Notes: generated by a model not told the origin, from the letters alone. A stretch of 20,000 nucleotides of DNA from an uncultured virus (IMG/VR IMGVR_UViG_3300028630_000295) (IMGVR_UViG_3300028630_000295), one strand, 5' to 3'. Numbered from the stretch's first letter, positions 509 through 20,000 are shown. A program made the numbers and translations.

Positions 509-1247
509 GTGTATAATATGTGGTAAATATTTTAGAAATAAAAGAGGTATTGCAACACATGTTTTTAAACATTCTGACAGATGTTTAAAAGGGTATATAA
601 TACTATATGGATTTAATAGGTGGACTTGGCCAGAAGAAACATTTTTAAATTTGAAACAATGTAAAGAATGTAGAGCACCATTAAAAGATGTAAGATCTAA
701 AGAATTTTGTTCATTTTGTAGATCAAATAATCATAATGTTATGAAAAATCCGGATATAGTTAAGAAAAATGTTGAAACAAATAAACCCTTGCGAAATACC
801 AAAGAATATAAAAAAATGATATCCGATAGATCTATAAAAATGTATAAAGAAAATCCTCAGTTAAAAGAGAAGCAAAAGAAATATATGTTAAATGGTGGTG
901 CTCTAAAGGCAAGAAAGGGAATTAAAAGTCCATCTAAACCACAGATGAAATTATTTTCAATGGTTAAAGAAATTTTTAATGACTCTATAATTAGTTATGA
1001 TATATGTGGTACTATTGATAGTAAAAAATTTCAGTTTGAGGTAGATATTGCAATACCAAAATATAAACTTGTTATAGAGTATGATGAACCATATTGGCAT
1101 AAAGATAAAGATTGGGATGAAAAAAGACAAAAGAAAATAGAAGTTCTCGGATGGAAGTTTTTAAGATACTCAGAAATTCCATCCATAGAAAAACTCAAAA
1201 CTGATATTTCAGAAAATATAGAGGATCTGGAAGTATGTCAGAACTAA
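483..1247 (+). CDS. Free-standing putative homing endonuclease: C2H2 and CxxC zinc modules plus C-terminal Vsr/DUF559-like (PD-(D/E)XK, EDxHD-type) nuclease
   Basis: CIICGKYF...THVFKH zinc finger; CKEC...CSFC; basic linker; C-terminal EVDIAIPKYKLVIEYDEPYWH...DEKRQKKIEVLGWKFLRY, typical of Vsr/DUF559 nucleases. Overlaps both neighbouring genes. Confidence 0.75.
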   Translation: MKIKDQKIRCIICGKYFRNKRGIATHVFKHSDRCLKGYIILYGFNRWTWPEETFLNLKQCKECRAPLKDVRSKEFCSFCRSNNHNVMKNPDIVKKNVETNKPLRNTKEYKKMISDRSIKMYKENPQLKEKQKKYMLNGGALKARKGIKSPSKPQMKLFSMVKEIFNDSIISYDICGTIDSKKFQFEVDIAIPKYKLVIEYDEPYWHKDKDWDEKRQKKIEVLGWKFLRYSEIPSIEKLKTDISENIEDLEVCQN

Positions 1248-4847: not shown

Positions 4848-4855
4848 GGAAAATA

Positions 4856-6025
4856 ATGTTTAATGTATATATCTATAATGAAGGAGATGAACTTCCGAAA
4901 GATGATGTTTGTTATATTCTCACAAAAGACGGCATTCTTCTAAAAAAGAAGGTCGGATTGATGGAGAGTATTTCTAAGGTTGATAAAATTTCGATTCTTG
5001 GAGATTTAAAACCACATGCAAAACTCCACATTGAAAAGATACCTGGTCCTGTGTTTGCTAAGATTTATAGTTTCTTTAAGGAAGTATATAAAGAGTTTTA
5101 TTCGGAGTGTGTAGCTCTTTTATACTATAATCCAAAAACGAAGAAATATAAAACTTTCATTCCGAACCAGGAGGTTTCTGGAGCTAGTCTTGATTATGTT
5201 AAAGATAGAACATTCAAAGATCATGTGTTGATGTGTTCTATTCATAGTCATGCTAGCATGAGTGCTTTCCATTCAGGAACGGATAGTGATGATGAAAAGA
5301 GCTTTGATGGTCTTCATATAACTCTTGGGAAGATGAATCAAGATGTTATTGATATCTCAGCTTCTATTGTTGCAAATGGAACCAGATTTATGGTTGATCC
5401 TCTTGACTATGTTCATAATCTGGATCTTGTTGAATTCTCATATTATAATCCAAATCAGTTTAAACCAGCATTTGTGGTTGTTGATGGTGAAAAACAATAC
5501 ACTAAAGATGTAAAAACACATCTTGGTTATGTAATTAATGGTGTATCTGATAAGGATAAGGAATTTGATAAGAATTGGATGAGATTTGTCAAGAAGAAAA
5601 CATACTCATATACATATTCAAGATGGGTATGGGATAATGAGCAGAAAAAACTAATTGAAGTCAAAGAGGAGAGATCTGGTGGTGAAACAGTTGGATCTGT
5701 TCTGGAAGCTCAAAATCGTGCCCGTGGTGGTTATCCATATTATGGTGGTCATAGGGGACGAGAGGATTGGTGGACTGGTATAAACGAAAGACAAAGGTAT
5801 AGAAATGATGAACATACATCTCCAAGATATGAAAAATATAATCCATGTAAGGATTGTATTTTTAGAGATCATAAACTGAGACAAGATGAAGTTAGCAAAG
5901 CACTAGAACCAGTTGCTGATAACTATAAGAGTAAAACTCCTGATCCTACTTTTAAAGAAATGGTAAATACAGATCAAGAACTCATGGAACTTTATGATGA
6001 ATTTGGTCTGTATAGATACTGGTAA
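4856..6025 (+). CDS. JAB/MPN+ (JAMM) metallopeptidase, prokaryotic deubiquitinase-like (PRTRC protein A-like)
   Basis: SECVALLYY (catalytic Glu), P.QEVSGASLDY and SIHSHASMSAFHSGTDSDDE (HxH-x7-S-x2-D JAMM motif). ATG 4856 after GAGG preferred over GTG 4844. Confidence 0.9.
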   Translation: MFNVYIYNEGDELPKDDVCYILTKDGILLKKKVGLMESISKVDKISILGDLKPHAKLHIEKIPGPVFAKIYSFFKEVYKEFYSECVALLYYNPKTKKYKTFIPNQEVSGASLDYVKDRTFKDHVLMCSIHSHASMSAFHSGTDSDDEKSFDGLHITLGKMNQDVIDISASIVANGTRFMVDPLDYVHNLDLVEFSYYNPNQFKPAFVVVDGEKQYTKDVKTHLGYVINGVSDKDKEFDKNWMRFVKKKTYSYTYSRWVWDNEQKKLIEVKEERSGGETVGSVLEAQNRARGGYPYYGGHRGREDWWTGINERQRYRNDEHTSPRYEKYNPCKDCIFRDHKLRQDEVSKALEPVADNYKSKTPDPTFKEMVNTDQELMELYDEFGLYRYW

Positions 6026-6038
6026 AATGGAGGAATTA

Positions 6039-6722
6039 ATGGAAAGACTTGTAATTATTGGTCTTGGAGGTATTGGTTCAATTTTAAGTGATAAATTATC
6101 TAGATTTGTAAATTTCAAAAAAGATCAAGAAACTTGGATTACATTGATTGATGGTGATTATTTTGAGGAGAAGAATTTTGAAAGACAAGAATTCTTCAAC
6201 CTTGGAAATAAAGCATCAGTCAAGGCAGCGGAATTGAGTTCAAGGTATGAGAAGATTAAGTATGATAATGTTCCATACTTTGTTGATGAAAATCTTTTAC
6301 CAAGAGTGATGGGTGAGGGAGACACTGTTTTTCTCGCAGTTGATAATCATAAAACGAGAAAATTAGTCTCTGATTATGCTAAAAATTTAAAAGATATTAC
6401 TATTATCTCTGGTGGTAACGATCTTATTGATGGGAACGTGCAAATCTATGTACGAAAAGGAGGTGAAGATTTAACTCCCAGTCTTACTGATTACCACCCA
6501 GAAATTGAAAACCCAGCAGACAAATTACCAAATGAAATGAGTTGTGAAGAGTTACAAAACTCTGAACCCCAACTATTCTTTACAAATTTAGGGGTTGCTA
6601 CAATCATGTGTTGGTCCTATTACAATATTAAAAATAAAGACCTCACAAGTTCCGAAATTTATTTTGATATTAACAAAATGAGAGCACATTCTACTGCTAG
6701 AGAACCAAAAACTAAAAAGTAA
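6039..6722 (+). CDS. E1-like ThiF/MoeB-family adenylyltransferase (Ubl-activating enzyme)
   Basis: IIGLGGIG, LIDGD..EEKNFERQ, NKA, LAVDNHKTR and SCEE...QLFFTN with candidate catalytic Cys (codon 6543-6545). No CxxC zinc pairs. ATG 6039 follows GGAGG (6029-6033). Confidence 0.9.
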   Translation: MERLVIIGLGGIGSILSDKLSRFVNFKKDQETWITLIDGDYFEEKNFERQEFFNLGNKASVKAAELSSRYEKIKYDNVPYFVDENLLPRVMGEGDTVFLAVDNHKTRKLVSDYAKNLKDITIISGGNDLIDGNVQIYVRKGGEDLTPSLTDYHPEIENPADKLPNEMSCEELQNSEPQLFFTNLGVATIMCWSYYNIKNKDLTSSEIYFDINKMRAHSTAREPKTKK

Positions 6723-6732
6723 GGAGTTTGAA

Positions 6733-7182
6733 ATGAATAGAGCAGAACTAGAAGCAAAAACCGTAGATGAACTTCGTAGTATTTGTGTACGTTATGGTAT
6801 CGTTGGAATGAGCAAGAAGAGGAAGGACATCATTGTTGATGCTCTTCTAGCATATTATAAAAGTAGTGCAGGACCAGTTTCAAAGTCCGGTTCCCAGAAC
6901 CTCGATGAAATGAGGTCCGTTTTTCACAGTAAAGTTACGAATCCTGGTGCAGCAGCAGGAAACAAAACTTCTACCACAATCCTCGTATCCTGTGGTGCGG
7001 CGTATGGAAACTTTCCTGTGGTCGGGAAAACTGTGGGGTCCGTTGCCGAGTTTCTTCGGGAAGTCCTCAATGTTGACCGTATGTCACAAGGTGTCGTAAA
7101 CGGTAAGCAGGTTGAAGATTCTTACCGTCTGAAAGAAGGGGACAATCTTGAGTTCCTGAAACCTGCTGGCCGCAAAGGTTAA
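6733..7182 (+). CDS. Ubiquitin-like (beta-grasp) protein with N-terminal Rho-N/HeH-like helical domain, C-terminus ...PAGRKG
   Basis: N-terminal LEAKTVDELRSICVRYGIVGMSKKRKDIIVDALL (Rho-N-like). C-terminal GKTVGSVAEFLREVLNV...VVNGKQVEDSYRLKEGDNLEFLKPAGRKG (beta-grasp with free terminal Gly, GxKG end as in PRTRC protein C). Strong AAGGAG RBS. Confidence 0.88.
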   Translation: MNRAELEAKTVDELRSICVRYGIVGMSKKRKDIIVDALLAYYKSSAGPVSKSGSQNLDEMRSVFHSKVTNPGAAAGNKTSTTILVSCGAAYGNFPVVGKTVGSVAEFLREVLNVDRMSQGVVNGKQVEDSYRLKEGDNLEFLKPAGRKG

Positions 7183-7190
7183 AAAATGAA

Positions 7191-7223
7191 GCTCCCAGTC
7201 TTCATGGAAAGAGGACTGGGAGC
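7191..7223 (+). terminator. GC-rich stem-loop closing the Ubl operon (terminator or mRNA-stabilising hairpin)
   Basis: GCTCCCAGTC (7191-7200) is the perfect reverse complement of GACTGGGAGC (7214-7223), extendable by 3 pairs. It begins 8 nt after the Ubl stop. Only a weak T-tract follows. Confidence 0.65.
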
Positions 7224-7246
7224 CCATTTAATAAACTTATGGAGAA

Positions 7247-7738
7247 ATGATTATGGAAGATGGCAAGCAGATCAATCCTGAAAATCTATATCCCAAGTAT
7301 TATTATCAATCGGATGAAATCATTGGAAACGTGTATACAGCATGTATTCTAGTTGATAGATCTAACGGTGTAATTGTGTCAAGAGGTATAGCTGTAAGAT
7401 CTCTTCTTGACATGCATAAAAAAGCAACTGCCAGAAATATTGCTCATGGTAGAGCTATTAAAGCTATTGCCAATGTGAGTAGTTCTGATGAAATCAATGT
7501 TGATAGGCAGAGAGTTCCATCGTTTATTCTATTTAAGAAGAAAGATGGATTAACAGAAGAAGAAGCTCAGAAAATCAATGAGAGTTTCTTTATTCCAGAA
7601 GGATCCTCAAACATTTATGTTCCAAGGTTCTATCCACTTGAGGTAACTGCAAAAGAGTTTAAATTCAAATCAGAATTTATGCCTCAACCTACTGAGAAGG
7701 AAAAGATGATTGCTACAAAGTTACCTAAAGTAAAATAG
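7247..7738 (+). CDS. Phage protein, possibly Gp49/DUF1876-like dsRBD-fold
   Basis: TACILV...SRGIAVRSLLD.HKKATARNIAHGRAIKA resembles the G.A.....D.......IA..RA pattern of that family. GGAG upstream (start 7247 or 7253). Confidence 0.5.
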   Translation: MIMEDGKQINPENLYPKYYYQSDEIIGNVYTACILVDRSNGVIVSRGIAVRSLLDMHKKATARNIAHGRAIKAIANVSSSDEINVDRQRVPSFILFKKKDGLTEEEAQKINESFFIPEGSSNIYVPRFYPLEVTAKEFKFKSEFMPQPTEKEKMIATKLPKVK

Positions 7739-7743
7739 TATGA

Positions 7744-7857
7744 TTGGTGGGTGGGTGACCTGGGGAGGAACTTGATGCTAGATCCAAAAAAGGGTACAAT
7801 TTTGATCCTTTAAACCGACTAGTGTTCAAGGAGTAACCCACAGTAGCCCACCCCCAA
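7744..7857 (+). ncRNA. Unidentified structured RNA element (long interrupted hairpin), cis-leader or small RNA
   Basis: Nested complementarity: 7744-7756/7846-7857 (one bulge), TGGG 7761-64/CCCA 7837-40, CTTGA 7771-75/TCAAG 7826-30, TGCTAG 7776-81/CTAGTG 7819-24, AAAGGGT 7789-95/ATCCTTT 7805-11. Fills the only large intergenic gap and is far more GC-rich than its surroundings. Strand is assumed. Confidence 0.6.
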
Positions 7858-7874
7858 ACTTTTAAGGAGTTTGT

Positions 7875-8129
7875 ATGGCATATAACCAAGAAAAGGATAA
7901 ACTTTTAAAACTTTTTGAAATGGAATCCAATATTCCAGGAAACAGTCTTTTGGTTTCGATATTTTCATATGATAATGCAAAACCAAAGCTTCAAATTACA
8001 AGATCATATAAGAAAAAAGATGAAACATTAGGATATGCAGCTGCTGGAAGATTAACAATAGAAGAAGTAGAATTTCTGAAAAATAATATGGATGAAATTA
8101 TTTCAACAATGAAAGGTATAGGTAAGTGA
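7875..8129 (+). CDS. PC4/YdbC-like small ssDNA-binding protein or transcription cofactor
   Basis: LLVSIFSYDNAKPKLQITR...GRLTIEEVEFL matches the PC4-fold pattern (beta strands, then xLT.EE helix). TAAGGAG RBS. Confidence 0.6.
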   Translation: MAYNQEKDKLLKLFEMESNIPGNSLLVSIFSYDNAKPKLQITRSYKKKDETLGYAAAGRLTIEEVEFLKNNMDEIISTMKGIGK

Positions 8130-8181
8130 GATGCTTTCTCAACATTAGGGAACAAATAAATGTGGATTGGAGGGATGTGAT

Positions 8182-9066
8182 TTGTACGGTAGTATTTCCC
8201 TTATTGGTTTAGGATCACTTGGTAGTTTTTTAGCTAGAACCCTCGTAGATGCAAGTCGTCATTTGAGAGAACTTATCTTGATAGATTATGATATAGTATC
8301 AGAAGATAATTTAGAGAGAAGTTTATACGATATAAATGATATAGGAAAATTGAAAATAGATGCCCTATTTGATAAAATAAGAAATTATAAACCAAGTTTA
8401 TCAGTTCAAAAACTTGCGACTAGATTAATTTCTGGATCACCACTTCCAATATGCGACTTACATATTGACTGTAGAGATTTTCATTATAATTCAATTGAAA
8501 ATGTACCAATGATAAGAACTTATATTTCTTCTGGAAAACTAGTTGTAGATTGTAGGGATAATATTAAACACCAACGAAATATAGAAGGTTCTTACTCAAC
8601 GGTAGTTTTGAAACACCATCTTTTATATGCTTCAACAATTATAGCAAATTTGATTGACACAGGAAATATTAAAAAATTAATTGACAAAAAATTAGTTCAA
8701 ATTTTTGAACTAGATTACCTCGAAAAGAAAATAGAAGATAAACTCAATAGAGTAGAAAATATGCCAGATGTGATTTATGACTCAGAATTTGATAGTCAGA
8801 AATTATTGAACTTATTAGAATATTCTCAACCAATTATCTCTTCAAATAAAAACTCTCCTATTACAGTATATGTTGGTGGTCGAAATAGACCAACAGTTAA
8901 AGAAACAATTCCCCCAAATAGATTGTGTGATTTTAGTGACTTAATATCCTGTTTGTCACCATTAACACAATTGAGATTTTCTAGTAATTACTATATTGTG
9001 ATATTTAGTCCAATTACACCACATGGTCCTATCATTGAGTTAATTCCAGACGATGGTTCAGCGTAG
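8182..9066 (+). CDS. Second, divergent ThiF/E1-like adenylation-domain protein with unknown C-terminal domain
   Basis: ISLIGLGSLGS, LILIDYDIVSEDNLERSLY, DIGKLKIDAL, DLHIDCRD. TTG 8182 lies 7 nt after GGAGGG and is preferred over 8167. Confidence 0.8.
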   Translation: MYGSISLIGLGSLGSFLARTLVDASRHLRELILIDYDIVSEDNLERSLYDINDIGKLKIDALFDKIRNYKPSLSVQKLATRLISGSPLPICDLHIDCRDFHYNSIENVPMIRTYISSGKLVVDCRDNIKHQRNIEGSYSTVVLKHHLLYASTIIANLIDTGNIKKLIDKKLVQIFELDYLEKKIEDKLNRVENMPDVIYDSEFDSQKLLNLLEYSQPIISSNKNSPITVYVGGRNRPTVKETIPPNRLCDFSDLISCLSPLTQLRFSSNYYIVIFSPITPHGPIIELIPDDGSA

Positions 9067-9865: not shown

Positions 9866-12565
9866 ATGCCTTCATTGTTGGATCAAAACAAATTCGTTGA
9901 GGATTTGCCGGAAGTTTCTTCTGTATCAATTATGAGCAAAAGAAAGTTCCATCCAGAAGGACTTTTCTCTGAGCAGATTTTTGGACCTCTCAAAAATTAT
10001 ACATGCCAATGTGGAGTATATTATGGTTCTTCTAAATCAGGTGGGAAGTGCAAAACTTGCCAGGTTGATATAGTGAATAACAATGAGAGGAGAAAAAGGT
10101 TTGCTAAGATTAGACTTCCTATTCCTGTAGTTAATCCAATCTTTTATGATCTCATTGTTAGTATTGGTGGGAATAACTTAAAGGCTACGATTGACACATT
10201 GATGAAAAAAGACGATGTTAGTCTTTATAAGGATGGAAATGATTATGTATGCGTAGACGATAAATTAGTTCCTCCAAAAGTTAAAAAATGGGAAACATTA
10301 GAAGCAATCAATGAACTTATTACTGGAATTACAAAAGAAAATGTTAAAGGTGGGAATAAAAATTGGAAAATTATTCAAGATAATTTAGATAAACTATTTC
10401 TAAATTATGTTATTGTTCTCCCACCTGATTTGAGACCAGCAGCAAAAGGGATTGAAAAGAACAGTCAGGTAGTAGATAAAATTAATAGATATTATATGCA
10501 AATACTAACTAAAAAAGAAATAATGAAAGAAACTATTATTAATGTAACCAATAATAAACAATTATTTTATACTTATTTTAAGCAGTTACAAAAAGATGTA
10601 AACGAATTATATGAGCATATTATTGAAAAGCTATCTAAAAAAGAAGGCTTAATCAGGGGAAATATTCTTGGAAAGAGAATTGACTTTTCTGGTCGAGCAG
10701 TTATCATTCCAGATCCAACCCTATCTTTAGATGAATGTTGTTTACCATATATTATGGTTCTGGAATTGTTCAAGTTAAAAATCTCCAAAATTTTGATTGA
10801 GCTTGGAAAATTTAAACTTCTTAATGATGCTGTTGATTATATTGACAAGTGTATTGAATATAAAATTCCGGCTCTATACAAAATTGCAGAAGAAGCAATT
10901 TATGACGAAGTTTGTTTATTGAATAGACAACCATCTCTGCATAGATTGAGCATGGTTGGTTTCAAAATTAAGATGTCAGTGGATAATGTTATTAAAATTC
11001 ACCCATTGGTTTGCTCTGGATTTAACGCAGACTTCGATGGAGATCAGATGGCTGTTTATATTCCAGTATCTGAAGAAGCTAAAGAAGAACTCAGACAAAA
11101 ATTTCTATCAACAAAAAATCTTACAAATCCAGCAAACGAGAGTTTAACTACAACTCCAAGTCAGGATATTGTTCTTGGGATATATACATTGACATCTCAT
11201 AGATTTAAAGAATTAGAAGGTAAAGTAGAATATAAAGGAAAAGAAATTACAGAAGCACAAAAAATATTTAATGAAGCACTACCAGAATCTTATCCAATTA
11301 TTGATTATGTTGTTGGAAAAAAGGAATTGATTTCAATTCTAAATGATATAAAAGATAATTATTCAGAAGAAATAACAAAGACAGTTTTAGATGAAATTAA
11401 ATGGAGAGGGTTTAAATACTCGACTTTATTTGGTTCAACTCTATCTCTAGATGCTTGTAGAATTGAGAACTCTAAAAAAGTAAGGAACTCTCTGTATGAA
11501 GGAGATAATATTCTTACTCAGTTAGAAAAAGTTTCTAGTGACGAACTAGAAACTATCCTCAAAAATAACTTTAGTTATTCTTATCTTATAACATCTGGAG
11601 CAAGAGGTAGTTGGGAACAAGTAAGGCAGATCGTTATGACCAGAGGTTTTATTTCTAACTTCAGAGGTCAAATTTTAGCAACTCCTATTAAACACAGTCT
11701 CTTAGATGGTTTAACTCAAGAAGAGTTTTTCCTTTCAACTTATGGTTGTAGAAAAGGTCTCCTAGACGTTTCGTTGAATACTGGAGCATCAGGATATCTT
11801 TCAAGGAAATTGAATTTCACTTGTGCTAATCTTCAAATTCACGAATCTCTAGATGATTGTGGAACGAAGGATCTTCTTGAAGTTTATGTTAATGACAAGA
11901 AGAAAGCGAGAATGTTAGTCAATAGATGGTGTATGCTTCCCACTAAAAAATTGGTATTAATTACACAACAGAATTATGAAGCCTTAATTGGAAAAACAAT
12001 TATGATTAGAAGCCCAATCTTCTGTAAGAGTGAGCAAGTATGTCATAAATGTTATGGTGAGTTATTTAGATCCCTTCATAGTAGATTTGTTGGAATAATT
12101 GCTGCCCAATCTTTAGGGGAATGCAATACACAGTTGATTCTAAGAACTTTCCATACATCTGGTGTAGCAAAAGTTAATAAAGGTGAAGAAGAAATGAAGC
12201 AGATGGACATTGTTAGTGATTTAGATAGTGTCAGTAAGCTTCTACATTTACGAAAGAGTAAAGAGTATAAAGAATTAGTATCTGATTTATATAAAGTTTA
12301 TAACTCAAATAGAGATATCTATCATGTTCATTTTGAATGTGTAGTGTCTCAGATGATGTGGAAAGGAAACACCAAATGGAGACTTCTTGAACACAGAGAT
12401 AAAATTGTTCCTGAATATCACAGTGTTCAATCAGTTCCCAGTAAAGAGAGTTGGTTATTGGGTCTTGGATTCTCAAACCCGAAACGACACATTTTAAAGG
12501 GAATTGTTCATGGTGGTCTCTATAGTGGAATTATGGATAAAATACTTTGTGGAGAAAAGTTATGA
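9866..12565 (+). CDS. rpoC: DNA-directed RNA polymerase beta' subunit, compact and divergent bacterial type (899 aa)
   Basis: GLFSEQIFGP, CQCG...CKTC zinc site, VLPPDLRP, KEGLIRGNILGKRIDFSGRAVI, LLNRQPSLHR, catalytic NADFDGDQM (~11024-11050), SGARG, bridge helix RKGLLD...SGYLSRKL, DCGT, RSPIFC...CHKCYG, trigger loop GIIAAQSLGE..TQL.LRTFH. Confidence 0.97.
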   Translation: MPSLLDQNKFVEDLPEVSSVSIMSKRKFHPEGLFSEQIFGPLKNYTCQCGVYYGSSKSGGKCKTCQVDIVNNNERRKRFAKIRLPIPVVNPIFYDLIVSIGGNNLKATIDTLMKKDDVSLYKDGNDYVCVDDKLVPPKVKKWETLEAINELITGITKENVKGGNKNWKIIQDNLDKLFLNYVIVLPPDLRPAAKGIEKNSQVVDKINRYYMQILTKKEIMKETIINVTNNKQLFYTYFKQLQKDVNELYEHIIEKLSKKEGLIRGNILGKRIDFSGRAVIIPDPTLSLDECCLPYIMVLELFKLKISKILIELGKFKLLNDAVDYIDKCIEYKIPALYKIAEEAIYDEVCLLNRQPSLHRLSMVGFKIKMSVDNVIKIHPLVCSGFNADFDGDQMAVYIPVSEEAKEELRQKFLSTKNLTNPANESLTTTPSQDIVLGIYTLTSHRFKELEGKVEYKGKEITEAQKIFNEALPESYPIIDYVVGKKELISILNDIKDNYSEEITKTVLDEIKWRGFKYSTLFGSTLSLDACRIENSKKVRNSLYEGDNILTQLEKVSSDELETILKNNFSYSYLITSGARGSWEQVRQIVMTRGFISNFRGQILATPIKHSLLDGLTQEEFFLSTYGCRKGLLDVSLNTGASGYLSRKLNFTCANLQIHESLDDCGTKDLLEVYVNDKKKARMLVNRWCMLPTKKLVLITQQNYEALIGKTIMIRSPIFCKSEQVCHKCYGELFRSLHSRFVGIIAAQSLGECNTQLILRTFHTSGVAKVNKGEEEMKQMDIVSDLDSVSKLLHLRKSKEYKELVSDLYKVYNSNRDIYHVHFECVVSQMMWKGNTKWRLLEHRDKIVPEYHSVQSVPSKESWLLGLGFSNPKRHILKGIVHGGLYSGIMDKILCGEKL

Positions 12566-12801
12566 GGAAAAAAATACCACATAACGACATAAATTATATC
12601 AAGTATCAAGCTGACCAGTTAGAAAATACAGTAAAACAAAGGTCACATCAGAGAAGAGCTCTTATTAGATTTATAAAAGCTAATAGATCCCATCTTAGAT
12701 GGTGGGATAATTACATTTCAACAAGATGTGATACAACACTGGTAGAGAAGGCTAGAAGTGTAATAGCTTCAATGGAGGAAAAATCAAAAACTCCAAGCTA
12801 A
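12562..12801 (+). CDS. Hypothetical basic protein between the two RNAP subunit genes
   Basis: ATG 12562 overlaps the beta' stop (ATGA) with GGAG upstream. Fills the gap to the beta RBS. Confidence 0.55.
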   Translation: MRKKIPHNDINYIKYQADQLENTVKQRSHQRRALIRFIKANRSHLRWWDNYISTRCDTTLVEKARSVIASMEEKSKTPS

Positions 12802-12816
12802 AAAGGAGGATTTCTC

Positions 12817-15800
12817 TTGGAAATCGTAAATCCTAAGTTTAAAGTAAACAGAGAAAATAATATATTTCTCATAAGAAAAAAAGAGTATCAGGAATTAGAA
12901 TCTCAAATAAGGGAGATTCTAAAACCAGCAGAAGAACTCGGATTTGCAGTTATGGAATTCGGGATTAAAGATTCAAGGACTTCTCCCGGAGAATTAGAGA
13001 AGTCCTTGAAAAAGAATTTGGTGATTAAACTACAAAAGGGAGCAGCTGAAATTGATTTGAGTATGTATATTCCAAGGTTGATTGATGATAATTATATCGT
13101 AATCAGCGGAAGGAAAAAGATACCCCAATTTCAGTTGTTTGATATTCCAATAGTTACGAGAGGAGAAACTATCAAGCTACGAACCAATGTAGCAAACATG
13201 ATTATTTCCAAGGAAAAAGATTTTCCATATATTCATCTCACAATCCTTGGAAAGAAAGTTCCCCTCTCAATATTAATGTTGGCATATTATGGTTTTGATA
13301 CGTTAAACAAAATGTATAGTTTAACATCAATGCCACCCATTGTCTTAGATAATAAATCAAGATTGATTGATTATCTAATGTTTGATTTGAAAGACTGGGC
13401 AGATGGGTATGATGGAGAGAAACAAGAGGATTATGTAAAAGAAATTGGAAGTAAATTTTCTAGTTATGATGCAAGGACCAAAGGAGAGGATTTAATTTAT
13501 TGTCTTGACTTGATTCCAAAAGTAGATATTATGTCTAAAAAGTTATTCAAGACACAAAATCTCATGGAAGAAATAGTCTATGCAATTAGTACAGATGGAA
13601 TTGATGATACTGATTATCAAAATAAGAGAATCAGATGTTTTGAGTATCTTATTTTGGGAAGGGTTGCTAAAGCTATATTTGATTTGTGTATGTCTAATCG
13701 AACAGCAAAGCAACCGAAGTTCAACATTAATTCCAATGCAATTCTCTCTGAATGTAATGTTTCAGACATCGTCCAGTTCGACTTTTCAATTAACCCAATT
13801 GATGAGTTGACAAAGTTGTCTAGAGCAAGTCTTTTAGGACCAGGAGGATTCAATAGAGAGAATGTTCCTGAATATCTAAGAGATGTTTGCCCTAGTATGT
13901 TTGGGAGAATATGCTCAGTTGATACTCCAGATAGAGATAACTGTGGTATTCTTCAGAATCTTCTTCCAAATGTTGATATGGATGATAATCTGAAATTTAC
14001 AGATCATACTTTAGATACAACTCCAATTTCAATCCCAGTTGCCATGGTTCCATTCTTAGAGCATGATGACCAGACAAGATTACAGATGTCATCATCTCAA
14101 ATGAGACAGGCAATCATGTTAACCAACTTCGATCAACCAATGATCCAGTCCGGGTGTGAAGGACTTTATACTGATTATACTCAATTTGTGAAAAGAGCGA
14201 AAAGAGATGGAGAAGTAATTTTCTTTGACCATCATTATCTAATTGTCGTCTATGACAATAAAGAGTTAGATATATTCAATGTTTCCCTTAGAAAAATCTA
14301 TGTGGATAACATGGATATGATGAAGGTCTATGTAAAACCTGGTGATAGATTTAAAGCTGGTGAGATTCTCGCAGAAAGCAATTATTGCACAGATGGGAAA
14401 ATTAATATTGGTAAAAATCTATTAACTGGAGTTATGATCTATTATGGAAAGAACTATGAAGATGGAATAGTTCTCTCTGATAGAGTAGTCAAAGAAAAAG
14501 TATTTACTTCTGTTCACTATACAGATCTTTCTTTTGTAGTTCCTCCTGATAAGGTTCTTCTGAGTTTAGCAAGTGATAAATATAAACCTCTTCCAGAGGT
14601 TAATTTATCAAAGTTAGAAAGGATTAATACTGCTGAATCCTATGCAGTTATGAAGGGAGTTCCGGAGGGTCCAATCGACTTTTGTTCAATCTTTGAAGAA
14701 CCAATTAAACTCACTGCGAAGCGTCCCATTTTGGTTACAGATGTAAATATCTATGCAAATAGATGGCATACTGGAGTGCCAGAATGGAACTCTTTTATTG
14801 AGAATAAAATTGAAGAACAGCAAAAGAGAGAGAAGAAACTTCAAGATGTAATAACAAAGAATTGTCCAAAGGAATTGGCAACACAATTAATCAAATTACA
14901 TGGACTAGATAAGTTCTCTAGTACAGGTAAATATAAGATTAAGGGTGAAGAAGTCAATGGTGTATATGTAGAGTTATATGGCATGTATGCTAGAGATATC
15001 CAACCTGGTGACAAAATTGCAAATAGGCATGGAAATAAAGGGGTTATTACTGAGATCATTCCCCATGAAAGTATGCCACAACTAGCAGATGGTCGTCATG
15101 TTGATATCTGTATCAATCCTCTCAGTATCATATCCAGAATGAATGTTGGTCAGTTATTTGAATTACATTTATCCAAGTCTCTTGAAGACTTAAAAACGAA
15201 ATTATTTAAGATGATAAAGGACGGGAAGGGTCAGAGAACTCTTCGAAAATATTTATTAGATTATATTGATATTATAGATAGAACAGAAGATAAATGGTAT
15301 TCAAAACAGTTTAAAGAACAACTGGGTGAGATAACAGAGGAGTTTGTAAATAGTCTGTGTTTGATTCAAGCACCATTTGAATCTGTCACGGACGATATGA
15401 TAAAGAACGCGATGGAATTTACCAACACCCCGTACCGGCAACCAGTCTACGATCCGATTTCAAAGACAACTTTGCAGGAAGAGATTGCAGTTGGATATCT
15501 ATACTTTTTCAGGATGGTTCATATAGCTGAAAGTAGATTAGCTGCAAGAGGAATTGGATCATATGCAAGAAGGACTCTGCAACCATTGGGAGGAAGAAAA
15601 AATCGTGGAGGTCAGAGATGTGGGGAAATGGAGACTGCATGTTTGATTGGTCACGATGCTCCAGTGAATTTATTTGAGTTCTTGACAACGAAGAGCGATT
15701 GCATTGACTTGAAAAATCAATACATTCGCCAGACGATGGAAACAGACTTCACGAAAGAACCTGAGGAACTTTCCATCGTGCCGGAGAGTGTTAAATTGTT

Positions 15801-15837
15801 GAACGCGTATATTACTGTAATCGGAATCAAACGTTAA
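12817..15837 (+). CDS. rpoB: DNA-directed RNA polymerase beta subunit, compact and divergent bacterial type (1006 aa)
   Basis: LGPGG, RDV...GRIC..DTP, VPFLEHDD..R..M...MRQA, GKNLL, NYEDGIVLS, GDKIANRHGNKGV, DICINPL.I.SRMNVGQLFE, QPLGGR..GGQRCGEME, VPESVKLL. TTG start after AGGAGG. Confidence 0.97.
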   Translation: MEIVNPKFKVNRENNIFLIRKKEYQELESQIREILKPAEELGFAVMEFGIKDSRTSPGELEKSLKKNLVIKLQKGAAEIDLSMYIPRLIDDNYIVISGRKKIPQFQLFDIPIVTRGETIKLRTNVANMIISKEKDFPYIHLTILGKKVPLSILMLAYYGFDTLNKMYSLTSMPPIVLDNKSRLIDYLMFDLKDWADGYDGEKQEDYVKEIGSKFSSYDARTKGEDLIYCLDLIPKVDIMSKKLFKTQNLMEEIVYAISTDGIDDTDYQNKRIRCFEYLILGRVAKAIFDLCMSNRTAKQPKFNINSNAILSECNVSDIVQFDFSINPIDELTKLSRASLLGPGGFNRENVPEYLRDVCPSMFGRICSVDTPDRDNCGILQNLLPNVDMDDNLKFTDHTLDTTPISIPVAMVPFLEHDDQTRLQMSSSQMRQAIMLTNFDQPMIQSGCEGLYTDYTQFVKRAKRDGEVIFFDHHYLIVVYDNKELDIFNVSLRKIYVDNMDMMKVYVKPGDRFKAGEILAESNYCTDGKINIGKNLLTGVMIYYGKNYEDGIVLSDRVVKEKVFTSVHYTDLSFVVPPDKVLLSLASDKYKPLPEVNLSKLERINTAESYAVMKGVPEGPIDFCSIFEEPIKLTAKRPILVTDVNIYANRWHTGVPEWNSFIENKIEEQQKREKKLQDVITKNCPKELATQLIKLHGLDKFSSTGKYKIKGEEVNGVYVELYGMYARDIQPGDKIANRHGNKGVITEIIPHESMPQLADGRHVDICINPLSIISRMNVGQLFELHLSKSLEDLKTKLFKMIKDGKGQRTLRKYLLDYIDIIDRTEDKWYSKQFKEQLGEITEEFVNSLCLIQAPFESVTDDMIKNAMEFTNTPYRQPVYDPISKTTLQEEIAVGYLYFFRMVHIAESRLAARGIGSYARRTLQPLGGRKNRGGQRCGEMETACLIGHDAPVNLFEFLTTKSDCIDLKNQYIRQTMETDFTKEPEELSIVPESVKLLNAYITVIGIKR

Positions 15838-15893
15838 TAAAAAGGGGGTAGATGAAATAGTCTACCCCCTCAATAGGAGAGAAGAATTAGATG
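15628..15893 (+). repeat. Direct repeat copy 1: last 69 codons of rpoB, hairpin, RBS and start codon
   Basis: Colinear without gaps with 18367-18576 over 210 nt (57/69 aa identical by hand count), followed by the same AGGGGGTAGA/TCTACCCCCT-CAA hairpin, AGGAGA and TAGATG. Confidence 0.95.
15843..15870. terminator. Stem-loop AGGGGGTAGA-N8-TCTACCCCCT after rpoB
   Basis: Perfect 10-bp inverted repeat, preceded by an A-run (T-tract on the minus strand) with no T-tract on the plus strand. Confidence 0.7.
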
Positions 15894-18341
15894 GCAAACA
15901 AAAAATTGAATAATGAGTTATTGAAAAGTTTGTCTATTGCAAAAAGTGAAAAAGATGTAGAAAATGCATATAGACATATGATGAGTCATTATTTTCCGGC
16001 ATCTACTACTTCTCCAAACAAAGTTGATGGATTTACAGAATCAGGAAAAATTAAGTTATTAATGGAGTTTAAATATAAATCTAATCTTAAAGACAAGTTA
16101 ACTAAGGCAGAGATTTTAGTTCAATTAATTTATTACTTAAAGCGTTTGGAGAAAAGTGGAGTTGCAGCAAATGTTATATTTTCTGGTGATATAGATGAAT
16201 GTTTCTGTATGAGTACAGGACCATTATATAAATACTTATCTAAAAATTTAGATTGGTCTATTGCTCCATCTAGTGCTTCATCTAAAAATCCAGAACTTAT
16301 ATCGGAAATAGTAAATGATAAAGAAATAGCACCATTTATATATGACATAAATAAGAATATTAATTCAGATCAAATAGCAGAAAAGATAAAATTTATCTCA
16401 GAGGGAAAATCATTTTCAATTGGTATTACAAAACATAATATAGTTCCAATCTTTAAATATTTTCAAGATCATGTAGTAACAGATAAGTTTTTATCTGAAA
16501 AAGATGAAATTAGAAAAATATCTAGAGCAGCTGATTTATTTATTTCTTGTTTAACTGATTCAGAAAATACCTTCTTGCATCCAAATAAACAGAATATTTT
16601 AAGATGTAGAGGGGAATCAATTAAGGTTAATGCAAACTTATATATCTCCTTCTTTAGTCATTTCAAGCAGGATTATACAGTTGAAGAATTGAGAGATTTA
16701 ACATCATGTAAAGATAGAATTATAGAAGAAATATATAGGAGAAGAACTGGTGCATTTTTTACTCCTACAATTTGGGTTGATGAAGCACATAAAATGATGG
16801 CAGAATCTCTTGGACCAAATTGGTATGACGAGTATGTAGTTTGGGATTGTGCAGCAGGAACAGCACAATTAACTAGAGATTATAATTTTAAAGAATTGTA
16901 TATCAGCACGCTTGAAAAAGGGGATATAGATATTATTAGAGATATGGAATATAATCGAGGAGCAACAATTTTTCAATACGACTTTTTAAGTGAAGTTGGG
17001 ATTGAAAAAGTTCCTGTTTCTTTAAGAAAATTATTTGAAGAAAAGAAGAAGATTTTATTTTTAATTAATCCTCCATATGGGAAAGCAGCAGGAAAAGGGG
17101 AGATTTATAAAAGTACAGAAAAAGGTAGTAGCAATAATATAGTTAATGATGTTATGAAATCTGAAAATTATGGAAATGCATCACCACATTTATATTTTCA
17201 GTTTATTTTTAAAATAATGAAATTAATAGAATATTATAAAAATGATGTTATAATATGTACTTTTGCACCTCCTGTTTTTATGACTGGACCATCATTTAAA
17301 AAAGCAAGAGAGAAATTTTATAATATTTTTTCATTTGAAAATGGTTTTATTTTTCAAGCATCTGAATTTTCAAACGTTAATGGAAGATGGGGAATAAGTT
17401 TTACAGTATGGAAACCAGGAAAAAATAAAAAGGAAATAGTAGTTTCATGCAGAAAAATAGAAGATTTTGAAGTTAAAGAAATAGGAAAGAAGAACTTATA
17501 TAGTACAGATAATGAAGAAGCATGTAATACATGGGTAAGAAGAGAAATTAATGGACTTAAAACTTCAGACGAACCAAAATTGTCATCAGCAATAAAGGTT
17601 GTTGAAAATGAACAAAATTCTAGAAAATTGTGTAATAGTATTGGTTCTATGTATAGTGTAGCAAACAATGTAGATAGTAATATGCAATCTGTAGCTTTAT
17701 TCTCTTCGTCATATTCTAATTCACAAAATGCTTTTCCCATAGTTCCAGAAAATTTTTATAAAGCTATAGCATTACTTGCAGCTAGAACTATAGAATCTAA
17801 TTGGATTAACTGGACAGATGAATATATAAAACCATCAGATGAAATTTTAAATTCGGATAAATATAAACAGTGGAATAATGATGCTATTATTCTTTCTATT
17901 CCTACAGAAGTATCTTCTCTTAGACAAATTCTTTACAAAAAACAAAAATGGAATATCTTCAACCATTTCTTCTTTATGTCAAATAAAGAAATGATGGAAC
18001 TAGCAAATAAATATAAATTTCCTGAGATGTATGAAGATGCTAGAAAATTTAATGAAGACAGATACGTTTATAAATTATTAGAATCAGTTAATCTTTCTCC
18101 AGATGCAAAACAAGTTCTAGAATATGCTAGAGAAATGATTAGAAAATCAATTGAATTAAGGAAAATTTGGCATGAAGAAAATCCAGAATATCATCTAGAT
18201 GCTTGGGATGCTGGATATGCACAACATAGAGAACTATGGAAAAAACATTTTAAGAAAGAATTTGATGTATTTAAAGAATTATATAAATCGTTTGGAGATA
18301 GGATGCGAGAAGGAGTTTATAAGTTTGGATTCCTAAAATAA
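15891..18341 (+). CDS. Fused restriction-modification-like protein (Type IIG/IIC architecture): N-terminal PD-(D/E)XK nuclease, gamma-class N6-adenine methyltransferase, C-terminal specificity region
   Basis: SEKDVE...KVDGF...LLMEFK nuclease motif; RRRTGAFFTP (motif X); VVWDCAAGTAQL (motif I, variant); FLINPPY (motif IV); ASEF..V (motif VIII). Confidence 0.85.
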   Translation: MANKKLNNELLKSLSIAKSEKDVENAYRHMMSHYFPASTTSPNKVDGFTESGKIKLLMEFKYKSNLKDKLTKAEILVQLIYYLKRLEKSGVAANVIFSGDIDECFCMSTGPLYKYLSKNLDWSIAPSSASSKNPELISEIVNDKEIAPFIYDINKNINSDQIAEKIKFISEGKSFSIGITKHNIVPIFKYFQDHVVTDKFLSEKDEIRKISRAADLFISCLTDSENTFLHPNKQNILRCRGESIKVNANLYISFFSHFKQDYTVEELRDLTSCKDRIIEEIYRRRTGAFFTPTIWVDEAHKMMAESLGPNWYDEYVVWDCAAGTAQLTRDYNFKELYISTLEKGDIDIIRDMEYNRGATIFQYDFLSEVGIEKVPVSLRKLFEEKKKILFLINPPYGKAAGKGEIYKSTEKGSSNNIVNDVMKSENYGNASPHLYFQFIFKIMKLIEYYKNDVIICTFAPPVFMTGPSFKKAREKFYNIFSFENGFIFQASEFSNVNGRWGISFTVWKPGKNKKEIVVSCRKIEDFEVKEIGKKNLYSTDNEEACNTWVRREINGLKTSDEPKLSSAIKVVENEQNSRKLCNSIGSMYSVANNVDSNMQSVALFSSSYSNSQNAFPIVPENFYKAIALLAARTIESNWINWTDEYIKPSDEILNSDKYKQWNNDAIILSIPTEVSSLRQILYKKQKWNIFNHFFFMSNKEMMELANKYKFPEMYEDARKFNEDRYVYKLLESVNLSPDAKQVLEYAREMIRKSIELRKIWHEENPEYHLDAWDAGYAQHRELWKKHFKKEFDVFKELYKSFGDRMREGVYKFGFLK

Positions 18342-18366
18342 ATACAGAAAAGGAGAATTACGAACA

Positions 18367-18576
18367 ATGGAAAATGCATGCATCATCGCCCATGATGGAA
18401 AAGTTAATCTTAGTGAATTCTTGACAACTAAGAGTGATTGTATTGATTTGAAAAATCAGTATATTAGAAAGATGATGGAAACTGATTTCACGAAAGAACC
18501 TGAAGAAATTTCAGCGGTTCCAGAATCAGTAAAGTTGTTGAACTCATATTTAACCGTAATTGGAATTAAGAGATGA
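18367..18576 (+). CDS. Stand-alone duplicate of the RNAP beta C-terminal 69 aa (displaced gene end or expressed mini-protein)
   Basis: MENACIIAHD...TVIGIKR versus METACLIGHD...TVIGIKR in rpoB. Intact frame, begins at the Met of the GEME motif, AAGGAG 11 nt upstream. Expression is unproven. Confidence 0.8.
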   Translation: MENACIIAHDGKVNLSEFLTTKSDCIDLKNQYIRKMMETDFTKEPEEISAVPESVKLLNSYLTVIGIKR

Positions 18577-18588
18577 GAATGTAACTAA

Positions 18589-18614
18589 AGGGGGTAGAGA
18601 TGGGTCTACCCCCT
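18589..18614. terminator. Stem-loop AGGGGGTAGA-N6-TCTACCCCCT, second copy
   Basis: Stem identical to 15843-15870 with a different loop (GATGGG). Confidence 0.7.
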
Positions 18615-18634
18615 CAAAGAAAGGAGATGTGTAG

Positions 18635-20000
18635 ATGTTTGAATTACAAACTAAATCATTAAATTTAGCTGATTGTTTAGATATATTAATTGAGTTATAT
18701 AGATCAGGAAAACGAGAATTTATTGATCTTATTTATATTGATCCTCCGTTCAATAGTGATAAAAATTATAATATTCCCTTTGAAGGAGGAGAATTATCAG
18801 AAAAAGCATTTGTTGATACATGGTCAAGAGTAGCTTATCATGACCAACTAGATATGATTTCTAAAATATCACCAGATTTATATAAGTTTCTTGTATCTTT
18901 AGAGAAGACGAGTATTAAAAGATCATATATCACCTACTTGACAGTTATGGGAATTAGAGTTTTCTTTATGAGAGAAATGTTAAAACCAACAGGAACATTC
19001 TACTATCATTGTGATCCTACTGCAAGTCATTATATTAAAATGATACTGGATCAGATTTTTGGAATGGATAATTTTAGAAATGAAATTGTTTGGTGTTATA
19101 CTGGACCATCTAATATACAAAAAAATTTTCCAAGAAAACATGATGTAATTTTAAGATACAGTAAAACAAATATTTTCACTTTTAACTTTAATTCAGTTAG
19201 AATTCCATATAAAGGATTAGCAGCACAGGGACCAAGTAGAAGATGGCATGATGATGAAGAAGAACGAATAAAAGAATCCTTGGAAAAAGGAAAAATAGTT
19301 GAAGATTATTGGACAGATATTACATTAGCTATAAGATCAACAATAGAAAATTTGGGATATCCAACTCAAAAACCAGAGAAACTTTTAGAACGAATTATTT
19401 TAGCTTCTTCTAATCCTGGAGATCTGGTTGCAGACTTCTATCTGGGTGGTGGAACTACAATTGCTGTAGCTGAGAAACTAGATAGGCAATGGATTGGTGT
19501 AGATATTAATCCAAGAGCAATTGAGATTTCTGAACAAAGAATAAAGGATCTTGGAAAACAACTAAAAAAAGATTTTATAGTGAGTGGTATTCCAAAATCT
19601 TCTAAAGAGTTGAGAAAATTAATAGAAGATAATGTATATGGTAAAGATAAAAATAGTAAATTTGCTTTAGAAGATATTGTATGTAAATATTATTTAAAGA
19701 ATGTAGTAGGAAATGAGAAAAAAGTTGGAGATGACTCAATTGATGGAAGATTCACTTTTGATTTTAAAAATGAGAAACATTCAGGAATTGTTCAAGTTAC
19801 TACTAGTGGAAATAAAACACATCTAAAAAATTCTTGTGCAGTTATGGATTTAGAAGGACATTCAATGCTAGTATATGTTACATTTGAAGATAAAATAACT
19901 GATCCATTAATTGATCTGGCTAAAAGATATAAGAAAATTGGTGGGGTGGATAGAGTTCAATTATTAAGTCTAGAAGACTTGATTGATAAGGGAAAACAAT
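18635..20000 (+). CDS. Beta-class N6-adenine/N4-cytosine DNA methyltransferase with C-terminal Mrr-like domain, 3'-truncated by the window (absent from the ORF track)
   Basis: Hand translation from ATG 18635 (AAGGAG RBS): IDLIYIDPPFNS, LKPTGTFYYHCD..ASHYIK..LD.IFG..NFRNEIVWCY, GYPTQKPEKLLERII.ASSNPGDLVADFYLGGGTT, WIGVDI, then GDDSIDGRF...GIVQVT. No stop seen before 20000. Confidence 0.92.
   Translation, partial: MFELQTKSLNLADCLDILIELYRSGKREFIDLIYIDPPFNSDKNYNIPFEGGELSEKAFVDTWSRVAYHDQLDMISKISPDLYKFLVSLEKTSIKRSYITYLTVMGIRVFFMREMLKPTGTFYYHCDPTASHYIKMILDQIFGMDNFRNEIVWCYTGPSNIQKNFPRKHDVILRYSKTNIFTFNFNSVRIPYKGLAAQGPSRRWHDDEEERIKESLEKGKIVEDYWTDITLAIRSTIENLGYPTQKPEKLLERIILASSNPGDLVADFYLGGGTTIAVAEKLDRQWIGVDINPRAIEISEQRIKDLGKQLKKDFIVSGIPKSSKELRKLIEDNVYGKDKNSKFALEDIVCKYYLKNVVGNEKKVGDDSIDGRFTFDFKNEKHSGIVQVTTSGNKTHLKNSCAVMDLEGHSMLVYVTFEDKITDPLIDLAKRYKKIGGVDRVQLLSLEDLIDKGKQ

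Follow-up and report, generated by a model that had tools for sequence, protein, structure and literature searches.

Mobile open reading frames (mORFs) of fungal mitochondria bring a foreign gene end with them, as in Allomyces atp6. WHO elements occur at FBA1 in Torulaspora and Lachancea yeasts; as far as Coughlan et al. 2020 (PMC7282813) describe them, their alleles are 99% identical upstream and 85% identical downstream of the cut, their relics cluster, and their cargo is a proven site-specific endonuclease. In bacterial chromosomes, restriction-modification (RM) gene complexes have been described as inserted with long target duplication (in the relevant part of Furuta, Abe and Kobayashi 2010, PMC2853133). 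In T4-type phages, the accounts of hyperplastic regions in PMC2839356 and PMC4122927 concern PeSL-mediated modular shuffling, while free-standing homing endonuclease genes (HEGs) beside essential phage genes form 'HEG islands' in the account of Barth, Dunham and Seed 2023 (PMC10448857). Here, we focus on a stretch of 20,000 nucleotides (nt) from an uncultured virus (IMG/VR IMGVR_UViG_3300028630_000295), termed the window, which is the whole stretch of DNA that was analysed. The end of rpoB, the gene for the beta subunit of a phage-encoded RNA polymerase, is present twice in the window, on either side of a gene for a Type IIG-like RM protein of 816 amino acids (aa). An earlier note on this DNA had read the arrangement as a selfish or homing element, in which a cassette of foreign rpoB end, hairpin and RM gene had entered at the conserved GEME site and restored the essential gene. 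The duplicated rpoB end is probably the young scar of a single crossover, illegitimate and mediated by microhomology, that joined the genomes of two related phages, with the RM gene as cargo.

The duplicated rpoB end and its junction

The direct repeat extends without gaps over 204 nt at 75% identity (15627-15830 against 18366-18569), and blastn lengthens it to 15627-15873 against 18366-18617, with both hairpins included. Copy 1 (15628..15837, + strand) consists of the last 69 codons and the stop of the working rpoB, and is followed by hairpin 1 (15844..15869, + strand), which has an 11-bp stem, no U tract and a predicted energy of -20.4 kcal/mol. Copy 2 is an orphan open reading frame (ORF) of 69 aa (18367..18576, + strand) that matches Pfam Rpb2_7 (E 5.3e-07), and it is followed by hairpin 2 (18590..18613, + strand; -19.2 kcal/mol). 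The translations read METACLIGHDAPVNLFEF...VIGIKR for copy 1 and MENACIIAHDGKVNLSEF...VIGIKR for copy 2. Between them 57 of 69 residues are identical, 29 of these 57 with a different codon, and 152 of 207 bases agree; the 12 amino-acid differences lie at positions 3, 6, 8, 11, 12, 16, 35, 36, 48, 50, 60 and 62. Copy 1 contains 12 CpGs against 4 in copy 2, and its GC content at third codon positions (GC3) is 0.49 against 0.32. The hand counts of the earlier note (57/69 residues, 29 recoded, six of 12 changes in the first 16 residues, CpG 12 against 4) are reproduced exactly.

Close relatives of the window are few. The beta proteins of two contigs, L001 and L002, are 86-87% identical to that of the window, and their rpoB genes are about 79% identical to it in nucleotides over the entire length; a third close relative, L021, is a 4-kb metagenome contig. 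Hairpin 2 is of the L001 type, whereas the region of hairpin 1 (15840-15873) is 100% identical to L002 9420-9453, and L021 has the same type. The hairpin pattern GGGGGTAGA..TCTACCCCC matches the window only at 15844-15869 and 18590-18613, where 0 matches are expected (200 shuffles); among the 68 IMG/VR loci with the pattern, 66 were set aside as unrelated chance matches, the L001 and L002 contigs being the relevant ones. A third hairpin built in this way, with the sequence GAGGGAGTAGA..TCTACTCCCTC and a predicted energy of -20.1 kcal/mol, follows a LAGLIDADG gene (L021 3693-3722, L001 7390-7419), and stem-loops of this kind may stand at the ends of many genes in these phages.

Many strains occur together in the sample, and contigs end at 15606-15635 and at 18375-18404, as might be expected had two strains been joined into a chimera during metagenome assembly. 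Contigs from independent public runs, however, bridge the repeat and junction: one from X13 spans 15606-18700 with 6 differences and one from X14 spans 15844-18404 with 0 differences. Fourteen DNA runs under 12 study codes, several of them marked as potentially the origin of the DNA, contain at least 96% of the sampled words of the window. Since the independent contigs bridge it, the duplicated structure is not an assembly artefact, and the probability of a chimera is negligible; two rpoB ends with hairpins do flank the 816-aa gene, as the earlier note had it. The X13 contig is otherwise identical over 3.1 kb and carries its six substitutions within 60 nt of copy 1 (15672-15732), which suggests a patch from yet another rpoB allele. 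Copy-to-copy gene conversion was rejected as the source for 15672 and 15687, the two of the six sites at which the X13 bases were compared by eye with those of copy 2.

The junction can be followed base by base in L021, where the order is rpoB end, type-1 hairpin, an 820-aa homologue (69% identical to the 816-aa protein), an intergenic stretch with AGGAG, a 54-aa ORF and a LAGLIDADG gene. Window 15801-18378 aligns with L021 70-2663 at 77.8%, through the stop of the 816-aa gene, an identical stretch with the ribosome-binding site (RBS) and ATGGAAAATGCA, with which the 54-aa ORF of L021 begins. Past 18378 L021 continues into the 54-aa ORF, and the window continues into L001-type rpoB, in exact parallel to L001 downstream of its ATGGAAACTGCA. 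The start of the 54-aa ORF (MENA) and the rpoB codons MET-A match at 11 of 12 bases, and the sole base that discriminates the two sources in the overlap, 18374 (A, not C), has the 54-aa-ORF version in the window. The segment 18342..18378 (+ strand; L021 match to 18378) is therefore a borrowed translation start, with the RBS AGGAG (18352-18356) 10 nt before the orphan ATG and ATGGAAAATGCA as the microhomology junction. The orphan has inherited its RBS and start codon from the 54-aa ORF; it consists of four codons of that ORF's start and 65 codons of an L001-type rpoB end, in frame, with the rpoB-derived part beginning at about 18379. The threonine-to-asparagine change at orphan residue 3 is present because the 12-mer there comes from the 54-aa ORF. 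A second copy of the final 69 codons, as first described, thus holds for 65 codons of the orphan and fails for its first 12 nt (18367-18378, MENA), which are not derived from rpoB. The junction is explained by the 11/12-nt microhomology and not by a targeted insertion at the conserved GEME site.

An RNA-library contig of X16 has 0 differences from the window over 17815-18378 and then runs into 54-aa-ORF sequence, so an orphan-free arrangement exists with the window's own allele of the 816-aa gene. No orphan is present in L021 or in the X16 contig, both of which have the 54-aa ORF behind an 816-family gene, and among the RNA-library contigs of X15 and X16 none bridges 18357-18379 in the form of the window. 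The X15 contig that covers 18375-18565 is one that an intact L001-type rpoB would also yield.

Two further observations concern this part of rpoB. At L001 4915-4930 rpoB lacks one base and has gained another at a distance of 7-10 nt; the outcome is an in-frame TGA that directly follows the MET-A codons, at precisely the place where the window has its junction. The TGA may be a homopolymer sequencing error or a real lesion. In a 56-nt X13 contig (depth 3.3), rpoB is joined in frame at 15606 (GGQRCGEME) to 26 nt that belong to a small zinc-ribbon membrane ORF. This ORF occurs in three IMG/VR contigs (e.g. L328 2731-3096), its next 30 nt resemble rpoB at about 23 of 30 bases past the joint, and the contig is either a rare chimera or another microhomology recombinant.

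The source of the orphan lies close to L001. Window 18366-18617, comprising orphan and hairpin 2, is 97.2% identical to L001 4904-5154, which is the end of L001's single rpoB with its hairpin, and over codons 11-69 there are 0 non-synonymous and 3 synonymous differences. The flanking backbone is far less identical: the rpoC-rpoB region (10728-15874, 5.2 kb) matches L001 at 79.5%, and the DNA downstream of the methyltransferase (MTase) gene that follows the orphan at 73-81%, save one 162-nt stretch at 93% that covers a homologue of the 54-aa ORF. The orphan is for this reason regarded as a local patch. In X14, a contig of 18375-18650 (orphan, hairpin 2 and MTase start) has a depth of 28.4 against 10.7 for the contig with the 816-aa gene and junction, a 2.7-fold excess that points to L001-type ends followed by the window's MTase in genomes without the junction. 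The view that the orphan is the original gene end, displaced, survives in part: the orphan does resemble the functional end of L001, but a single crossover would fit displacement (from parent B, below) as well as arrival as a passenger (from parent A). A relative whose rpoB ends in a copy-2-like sequence had also been predicted; L001 is such a relative, although another gene, and not the MTase, follows there.

Over 1006 codons the window shares 865 residues with L002, 361 of them with another codon, and 875 with L001, 347 of them with another codon, so that the other-codon share at conserved residues is 40-42% gene-wide. Windows of 69 codons across rpoB contain 15-35 such sites (mean about 24), and the repeat contains 29. 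The synonymous divergence (dS) of the rpoB body is 1.48-1.76 and the non-synonymous divergence (dN) 0.08-0.09; between the copies dS is saturated and dN is 0.15. Identity of the window to L001 and L002 is 0.73-0.89 per 150-nt window, with no step at 15627, although these relatives are not near-isogenic. Because codons change as often along the whole of rpoB as in the repeat, and dS of the gene body is high, the synonymous 'recoding' appears to be ordinary lineage divergence, and on this point the proposed recoded replacement end is not supported. Among 54 distinct family C-ends, copy 1 carries the consensus at 6 of 6 differing positions within the first 16 residues, and by this comparison the orphan/L001 type appears to be the derived form there. 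The rise in GC3 and CpG begins near 15300, about 300 nt before the repeat, and L002 and L001 also peak in CpG in their last 69 codons (8 and 6).

These results bear on the possibility that the RM gene itself drove an 'insertion with long target duplication', with double-strand breaks made by the incoming enzyme causing the rearrangement that inserted it. The RM-like gene does lie between direct repeats of 250 nt that are single-copy in L001, the insert has no transposase or integrase, and the pattern is reported, in the part of PMC2853133 concerned, for all RM types and as commoner than for average genes; in another contig, L061 (below), the repeats are 95% identical. Against it, the repeats of the window are just 73-75% identical and represent the alleles of two lineages, not a single target that was duplicated on insertion. 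Whether the enzyme caused the rearrangement is not something that sequence can tell, the pattern overlaps with that of a crossover scar, and we consider this origin doubtful.

The crossover that we favour would have joined two parents. Parent A would have carried rpoB, hairpin 1, the 816-aa gene and the 54-aa ORF, and parent B an rpoB with L001-type end, hairpin 2 and the MTase gene. Pairing of the 54-aa ORF start of A (ATGGAAAATGCA) with the rpoB codons MET-A of B (ATGGAAACTGCA) would have connected the left part of A to the last 65 rpoB codons of B and everything downstream. Such a junction would give a viable phage only if it duplicated, and did not delete, the end of the essential gene, and the redundant rpoB end would have survived as a relic for that reason. 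That the scar is young would explain why the orphan keeps an open frame, a borrowed RBS and an ATG. The 816-aa gene would be cargo, a single-chain Type IIG-like RM enzyme presumably directed against rival DNA.

Several points weigh against a crossover scar. GC3 (0.49) and CpG count (12) reach their maximum for the gene in copy 1, and a patch from a third lineage is a possible source of the excess. The compensating 1-nt indels of L001 rpoB place their in-frame TGA exactly at the junction site. A second orphan end of an essential gene (gyrB, L061/L060) lies beside an 816-family gene, and this could be more than chance. Parent B is seen in contig depth only, and the genomes compared include a near-isogenic form of neither parent. 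The arrangement is found in 14 runs of 2019-2025 and so is not transient, and the orphan is intact, with an RBS and zero non-synonymous changes relative to L001. The last two points would equally suit a functional orphan, a 69-aa protein that, as a free beta C-terminal domain, could modulate or compete in the phage RNA polymerase. However, its three differences from L001 are too few to reveal selection, its RBS and ATG simply came with the start of the 54-aa ORF, no other of the 130 loci has such an orphan, and the orphan of L061 has another fusion partner. We therefore regard a function as highly improbable, and the orphan presumably has none.

The slot behind rpoB and the homologues of the 816-aa gene

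The slot behind rpoB is a hypervariable mosaic, in which the cassettes of relatives differ and their borders lie at the conserved hairpin or at short microhomologies. In L001 rpoB is followed by an EVE-like 385-aa gene, the 54-aa ORF, a LAGLIDADG gene and a 213-aa ORF; in L002, an HTH gene precedes the hairpin and a 376-aa gene follows it. L021 has the 820-aa homologue, the 54-aa ORF, the LAGLIDADG gene, a 51-aa stub of the 213-aa ORF and an MTase gene, which was joined into the 213-aa ORF at a GATAGA microhomology to leave the stub. Behind its MTase gene, the window's phage has a 57-aa ORF, a further LAGLIDADG-like gene and a 215-aa ORF. Contigs of X15 and X14 provide further contexts for the 3' end of the 816-aa gene and for hairpin 1. 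A PF01555-like gene lies within 5 kb of an 816-family gene in just 8 of 123 loci, and owing to the rarity of such neighbours the MTase of the window is probably an independent cassette.

In the 100 nt that L021 provides, its rpoB end is that of L001 up to the last two codons, after which comes the cassette of type-1 hairpin and 820-aa gene. Since the cassette here follows an rpoB end of the L001 type and nothing is duplicated, copy 1 is not part of a mobile unit; hairpin and homologue are found here without a replacement end, contrary to a cassette that includes all three.

A wider survey covered both beta-gene ends and homologues of the 816-aa gene. A second copy of the beta C-end is present in 1 of 130 beta-end loci, the window itself, and in 0 of the 129 others. 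In the first two scans for homologues, in which some contigs belonged to two collections, 32 of 53 loci had both flanks of at least 150 nt, and repeats of at least 100 nt were found in three (L034, L052 and L061). Seventy further viral loci gave 61 that were testable and four with repeat matches (L259, L282, L299 and L324). Among the 93 testable homologue loci a gene-end relic is present in L061 only (L299 uninspected), or in 2 of 94 with the window, a count made with no formal control. The expectation that homologues lie beside duplicated gene ends is borne out by one other locus. The remaining candidates were discarded: the L034 repeat consists of non-coding arrays in front of two paralogues, that of L052 is a tandem array of five truncated paralogues, that of L024 is a second truncated paralogue, those of L259, L324 and L282 are intergenic repeats, and that of L205 belongs to an unrelated high-GC phage. 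The repeat of L299 is 86 nt long, its copies 7 kb apart. Self-comparison of 325 sequences (2.34 Mb) found direct repeats of at least 100 nt in 26, and in the roughly half of these that were inspected the repeats, except in the window and L061, are paralogues or intergenic repeats.

L061 has the same architecture as the window. A gyrB-like gene (complete in L060) is followed by a 103-aa Cys-rich ORF, an 806-aa homologue and a 100-aa ORF. This last ORF is similar to the 103-aa ORF over roughly 45 codons at its start, and the rest of it encodes a second gyrB C-terminus (PF00986, E 8.6e-11). The DNA of this orphan gyrB end is 95% identical to that of the real end (L061 1-3134, L060 3856-8082). This single independent case is weak, yet it keeps the selfish reading alive.

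On that reading, which resembles WHO/mORF homing, an L001-type rpoB that has not met the element is cut near the GEME/MET-A-C codons by a nuclease (the 816-aa protein or a nearby LAGLIDADG protein of 268 aa), a resistant rpoB end with hairpin and 816-aa gene is copied in when the break is repaired on the donor, and the orphan is the right homology arm. The layout is like that of WHO elements as described in part of PMC7282813 (a full gene with divergent 3' end, cargo, and a fragment of the sensitive allele from the junction onwards), the orphan matches a functional allele in circulation at 97%, gyrB of L061 provides a second case, LAGLIDADG genes are found 2-3 kb further downstream in L001, in L021 and in the phage of the window, and L001 has an indel scar at the spot of the junction. 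Yet the microhomology with the 54-aa ORF start explains the junction fully, and the cargo is Type IIG-like, of a class that cuts at short sites, and is in no homing-endonuclease family. L021 has the cassette behind a supposedly sensitive allele with no duplication; no identity step shows at the junction against L001 and L002, neither of them near-isogenic; copy 1 near the junction is the family consensus and not a derived immune form; and the relic occurs in 0 of 129 other beta-end loci and a gene-end relic in 1 of 93 homologue loci. Homing is therefore unlikely. We give as little credence to the broader proposition that phage Type IIG-like genes of this family spread among co-infecting phages in a WHO-like manner, the enzyme breaking a rival genome and repair copying the gene with the divergent end of an essential gene; a further invasion would then use the old end left behind, that of rpoB here and of gyrB in L061, as its right homology arm. 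If this were true, an RM enzyme, and not a classical homing endonuclease, would drive homing that replaces gene ends. The earlier note had named outcomes that would count against its own homing reading (relatives lacking the RM gene with a copy-1-like rpoB end, homologues without association with duplicated gene ends, or an enzyme that behaves as an ordinary short-site RM system), and two of these have largely come about.

The 816-aa protein and its phage

The 816-aa gene (15891..18341, + strand) encodes a predicted single-chain RM protein with a nuclease-like N-terminus, a gamma-class N6-adenine MTase (NPPY at 393-396) and a C-terminal target-recognition domain. On the coding strand of the insert (15874-18365) there is no other ORF, hence no transposase, integrase or prophage; the earlier note had likewise seen no integrase. 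The protein has zero matches in Pfam, PHROG, NCBIfam and PADLOC, and PDB searches with its sequence and with a 30-sequence profile gave chance matches only (E 0.3 and 0.5). The family contains at least 700 proteins of about 800-860 aa, PF07669 is found in 1 of the 120 listed, and its Atlas clusters are mostly viral. Residues D46, E59 and K61, which may form a PD-ExK motif, and NPPY 393-396 are invariant across 30 sequences.

An AF2 model (pLDDT 85.7) has DrdV as its best structural match (Foldseek E 4.5e-10; Z 18.4 over model residues 3-594, with an rmsd of 12.6 A over 379 residues). The N-terminal nuclease-like domain enters this alignment from model residue 3, at that rmsd and in the whole-chain model only. 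Further matches are LlaGI, M.TaqI, MmeI, BpuSI and BsaXI: M.TaqI aligns with Z 16.7 and an rmsd of 3.8-4.0 A over 292-298 residues, type I M subunits reach Z 16.8-16.9, and residues 272-813 align with MmeI (Z 15.7, 5.3 A, 384 residues), LlaGI (Z 17.1, 4.6 A, 343 residues), CamA and M.BseCI. The gamma-class MTase core with NPPY and the C-terminal target-recognition domain, both Type IIG features, are found in the protein. The modelled fold supports a Type IIG-like nuclease-methyltransferase, the architecture assigned to the gene at first sight. As in the Type IIG/IIL enzymes DrdV, BpuSI and MmeI (PDB 7lo5, 3s1s and 5hr4), one chain would combine nuclease, gamma MTase with NPPY and target-recognition domain; unlike these, it lacks a Pfam model, belongs to a mostly viral family and has 9-16% sequence identity to them.

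Some family members are arranged differently. A tandem array in L052 (501-7904) contains five paralogues without the N-terminal nuclease-like part (555, 305, 571, 568 and 415+ aa), with conserved ends and variable middles, and has the look of a reservoir of specificity modules. A second truncated paralogue is present in L024, and internal repeats of a similar kind occur in L057 and L063. In L282 (3866-7411) the gene is split into ORFs of 491 and 308 aa, and a 353-aa gene just upstream on the opposite strand is GIY-YIG-like by eye.

The window derives from an uncultured activated-sludge/wastewater phage that encodes the beta' and beta subunits of its own multisubunit RNA polymerase; the runs that contain it are from activated sludge, wastewater and digesters, dated 2019-2025. 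Nearly all of its ORFs are on the + strand. The beta' gene (9866..12565, + strand; 899 aa) matches Pfam RNA_pol_Rpb1 domains 1-5 with E down to 8.4e-35, and the complete beta gene, rpoB (12817..15837, + strand; 1006 aa), matches Pfam Rpb2 domains 3, 6 and 7 and NCBIfam rpoB with E 1e-101, below the cut-off. Beta' precedes beta, both are unsplit, and an 84-aa ORF (12547-12801) lies in between; the PHROGs families that best match the two genes are labelled as of unknown function. The last gene of the window (18635..19999, + strand) encodes a beta-class N6/N4 DNA MTase (Pfam PF01555, E 2.3e-47) that runs off the window; L012 and L013 are 100% identical to its residues 195-455 and extend the window downstream, and completion with L013 gives 474 aa.

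A back-translated motif of the beta C-terminus is present in at least 120 IMG/VR stretches (L067-L186, on contigs of 4.8-277 kb among those listed), and because all 80 of the 80 stretches fetched with flanks encode the beta C-terminal domain, the window is a member of a large group of uncultured phages. Among GenBank phages, tblastn with rpoB found best relatives of at most 31% identity, none covering 80% of the query, and three relatives in contigs of metagenome-assembled genomes, at 51-53% identity, are too distant for use. Rfam has zero families in the window, and a promoter and terminator scan gave no excess over shuffles.

Upstream of the polymerase genes, window 4844-9066 holds a ubiquitin-like conjugation set: a JAB-domain protein (4844-6025), ThiF/E1-like proteins (5994-6722 and 8167-9066; PADLOC E1-E2, E down to 2.8e-12) and a small protein (6733-7182) that matches Rho_N and, weakly, ThiS. 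Window 483-1247 and L001 10038-10763 contain free-standing genes that resemble endonuclease genes: a zinc finger is combined with a DUF559/MTES_1575 Vsr-like domain, the match to an HNH PHROG is weak, and the two genes have a common 137-nt stretch at 68% identity.

Comparison with known systems

The probable scar in the window is a well-resolved example of an already known kind of rearrangement. It gives a base-by-base view of how an accessory RM gene and an MTase gene became phage neighbours via an 11/12-nt microhomology, with the duplicated end keeping the essential polymerase gene whole. The case also calls for caution: recombination between two diverged lineages can, with no homing involved, produce a 'recoded replacement gene end plus orphan', so tests against gene-wide divergence and relatives are needed before a selfish element is called. 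Side products are a large, mostly viral Type IIG-like family (at least 700 proteins) outside all Pfam models, an orphan gyrB end that makes the homing idea testable, and a large set of uncultured phages in which neither the beta' nor the beta gene is split. Furuta, Abe and Kobayashi 2010 cite Nobusato et al. 2000 as their reference 37.

Of the systems described so far, RM complexes with 'insertion with long target duplication' come closest to the window, as far as PMC2853133 sets them out. Like those cases, the window has an RM gene between long direct repeats that are single-copy in a relative, no transposase or integrase, and a gene fusion at the junction (PMC2853133, in the part concerned). 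The repeats here, at about 250 nt, exceed 30 bp, and they align with a target that is single-copy in relatives, one copy each in L001, L002 and L021. They are not near-identical: the copies agree at 152 of 207 bases, their synonymous sites are saturated, and they come from different lineages. Unlike the cases described in that part of PMC2853133, the window belongs to a phage, its repeat is the 3' end of an essential RNA polymerase gene, and its junction is resolved to an 11/12-nt microhomology.

The likeness to WHO elements and mORFs, as WHO elements are portrayed in part of PMC7282813, lies in an essential gene with divergent 3' end, a cargo, and a stranded fragment of the other allele's 3' end. 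The stranded target 3' end that starts at the junction is present (18379-18576 and hairpin, 97% to L001); a homing-endonuclease cargo, a replacement end always accompanied by the cargo, and repeated invasion were not found at this locus. The window further differs from WHO elements, to the extent of that account (PMC7282813), in showing no identity step against L001 and L002, one relic in 130 loci, a Type IIG-like cargo, and a cassette that also occurs without a replacement end.

PeSL shuffling, as outlined in parts of PMC2839356 and PMC4122927, likewise swaps accessory genes among close relatives between core genes, with conserved stem-loops at cassette borders. The window differs in that its phage group is unrelated, its decisive junction lies outside the hairpin and its hairpins are known as predicted folds (compare PMC2839356, PMC4122927). 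As in HEG islands, within the scope of the account in PMC10448857, nuclease genes adjoin essential genes at exchange boundaries, and LAGLIDADG genes lie in the window's slot. Unlike HEG islands as presented there (PMC10448857), the duplicated unit contains no HEG, and intronless homing alone leaves no duplicated gene end, whereas the window retains one beside its RM gene.

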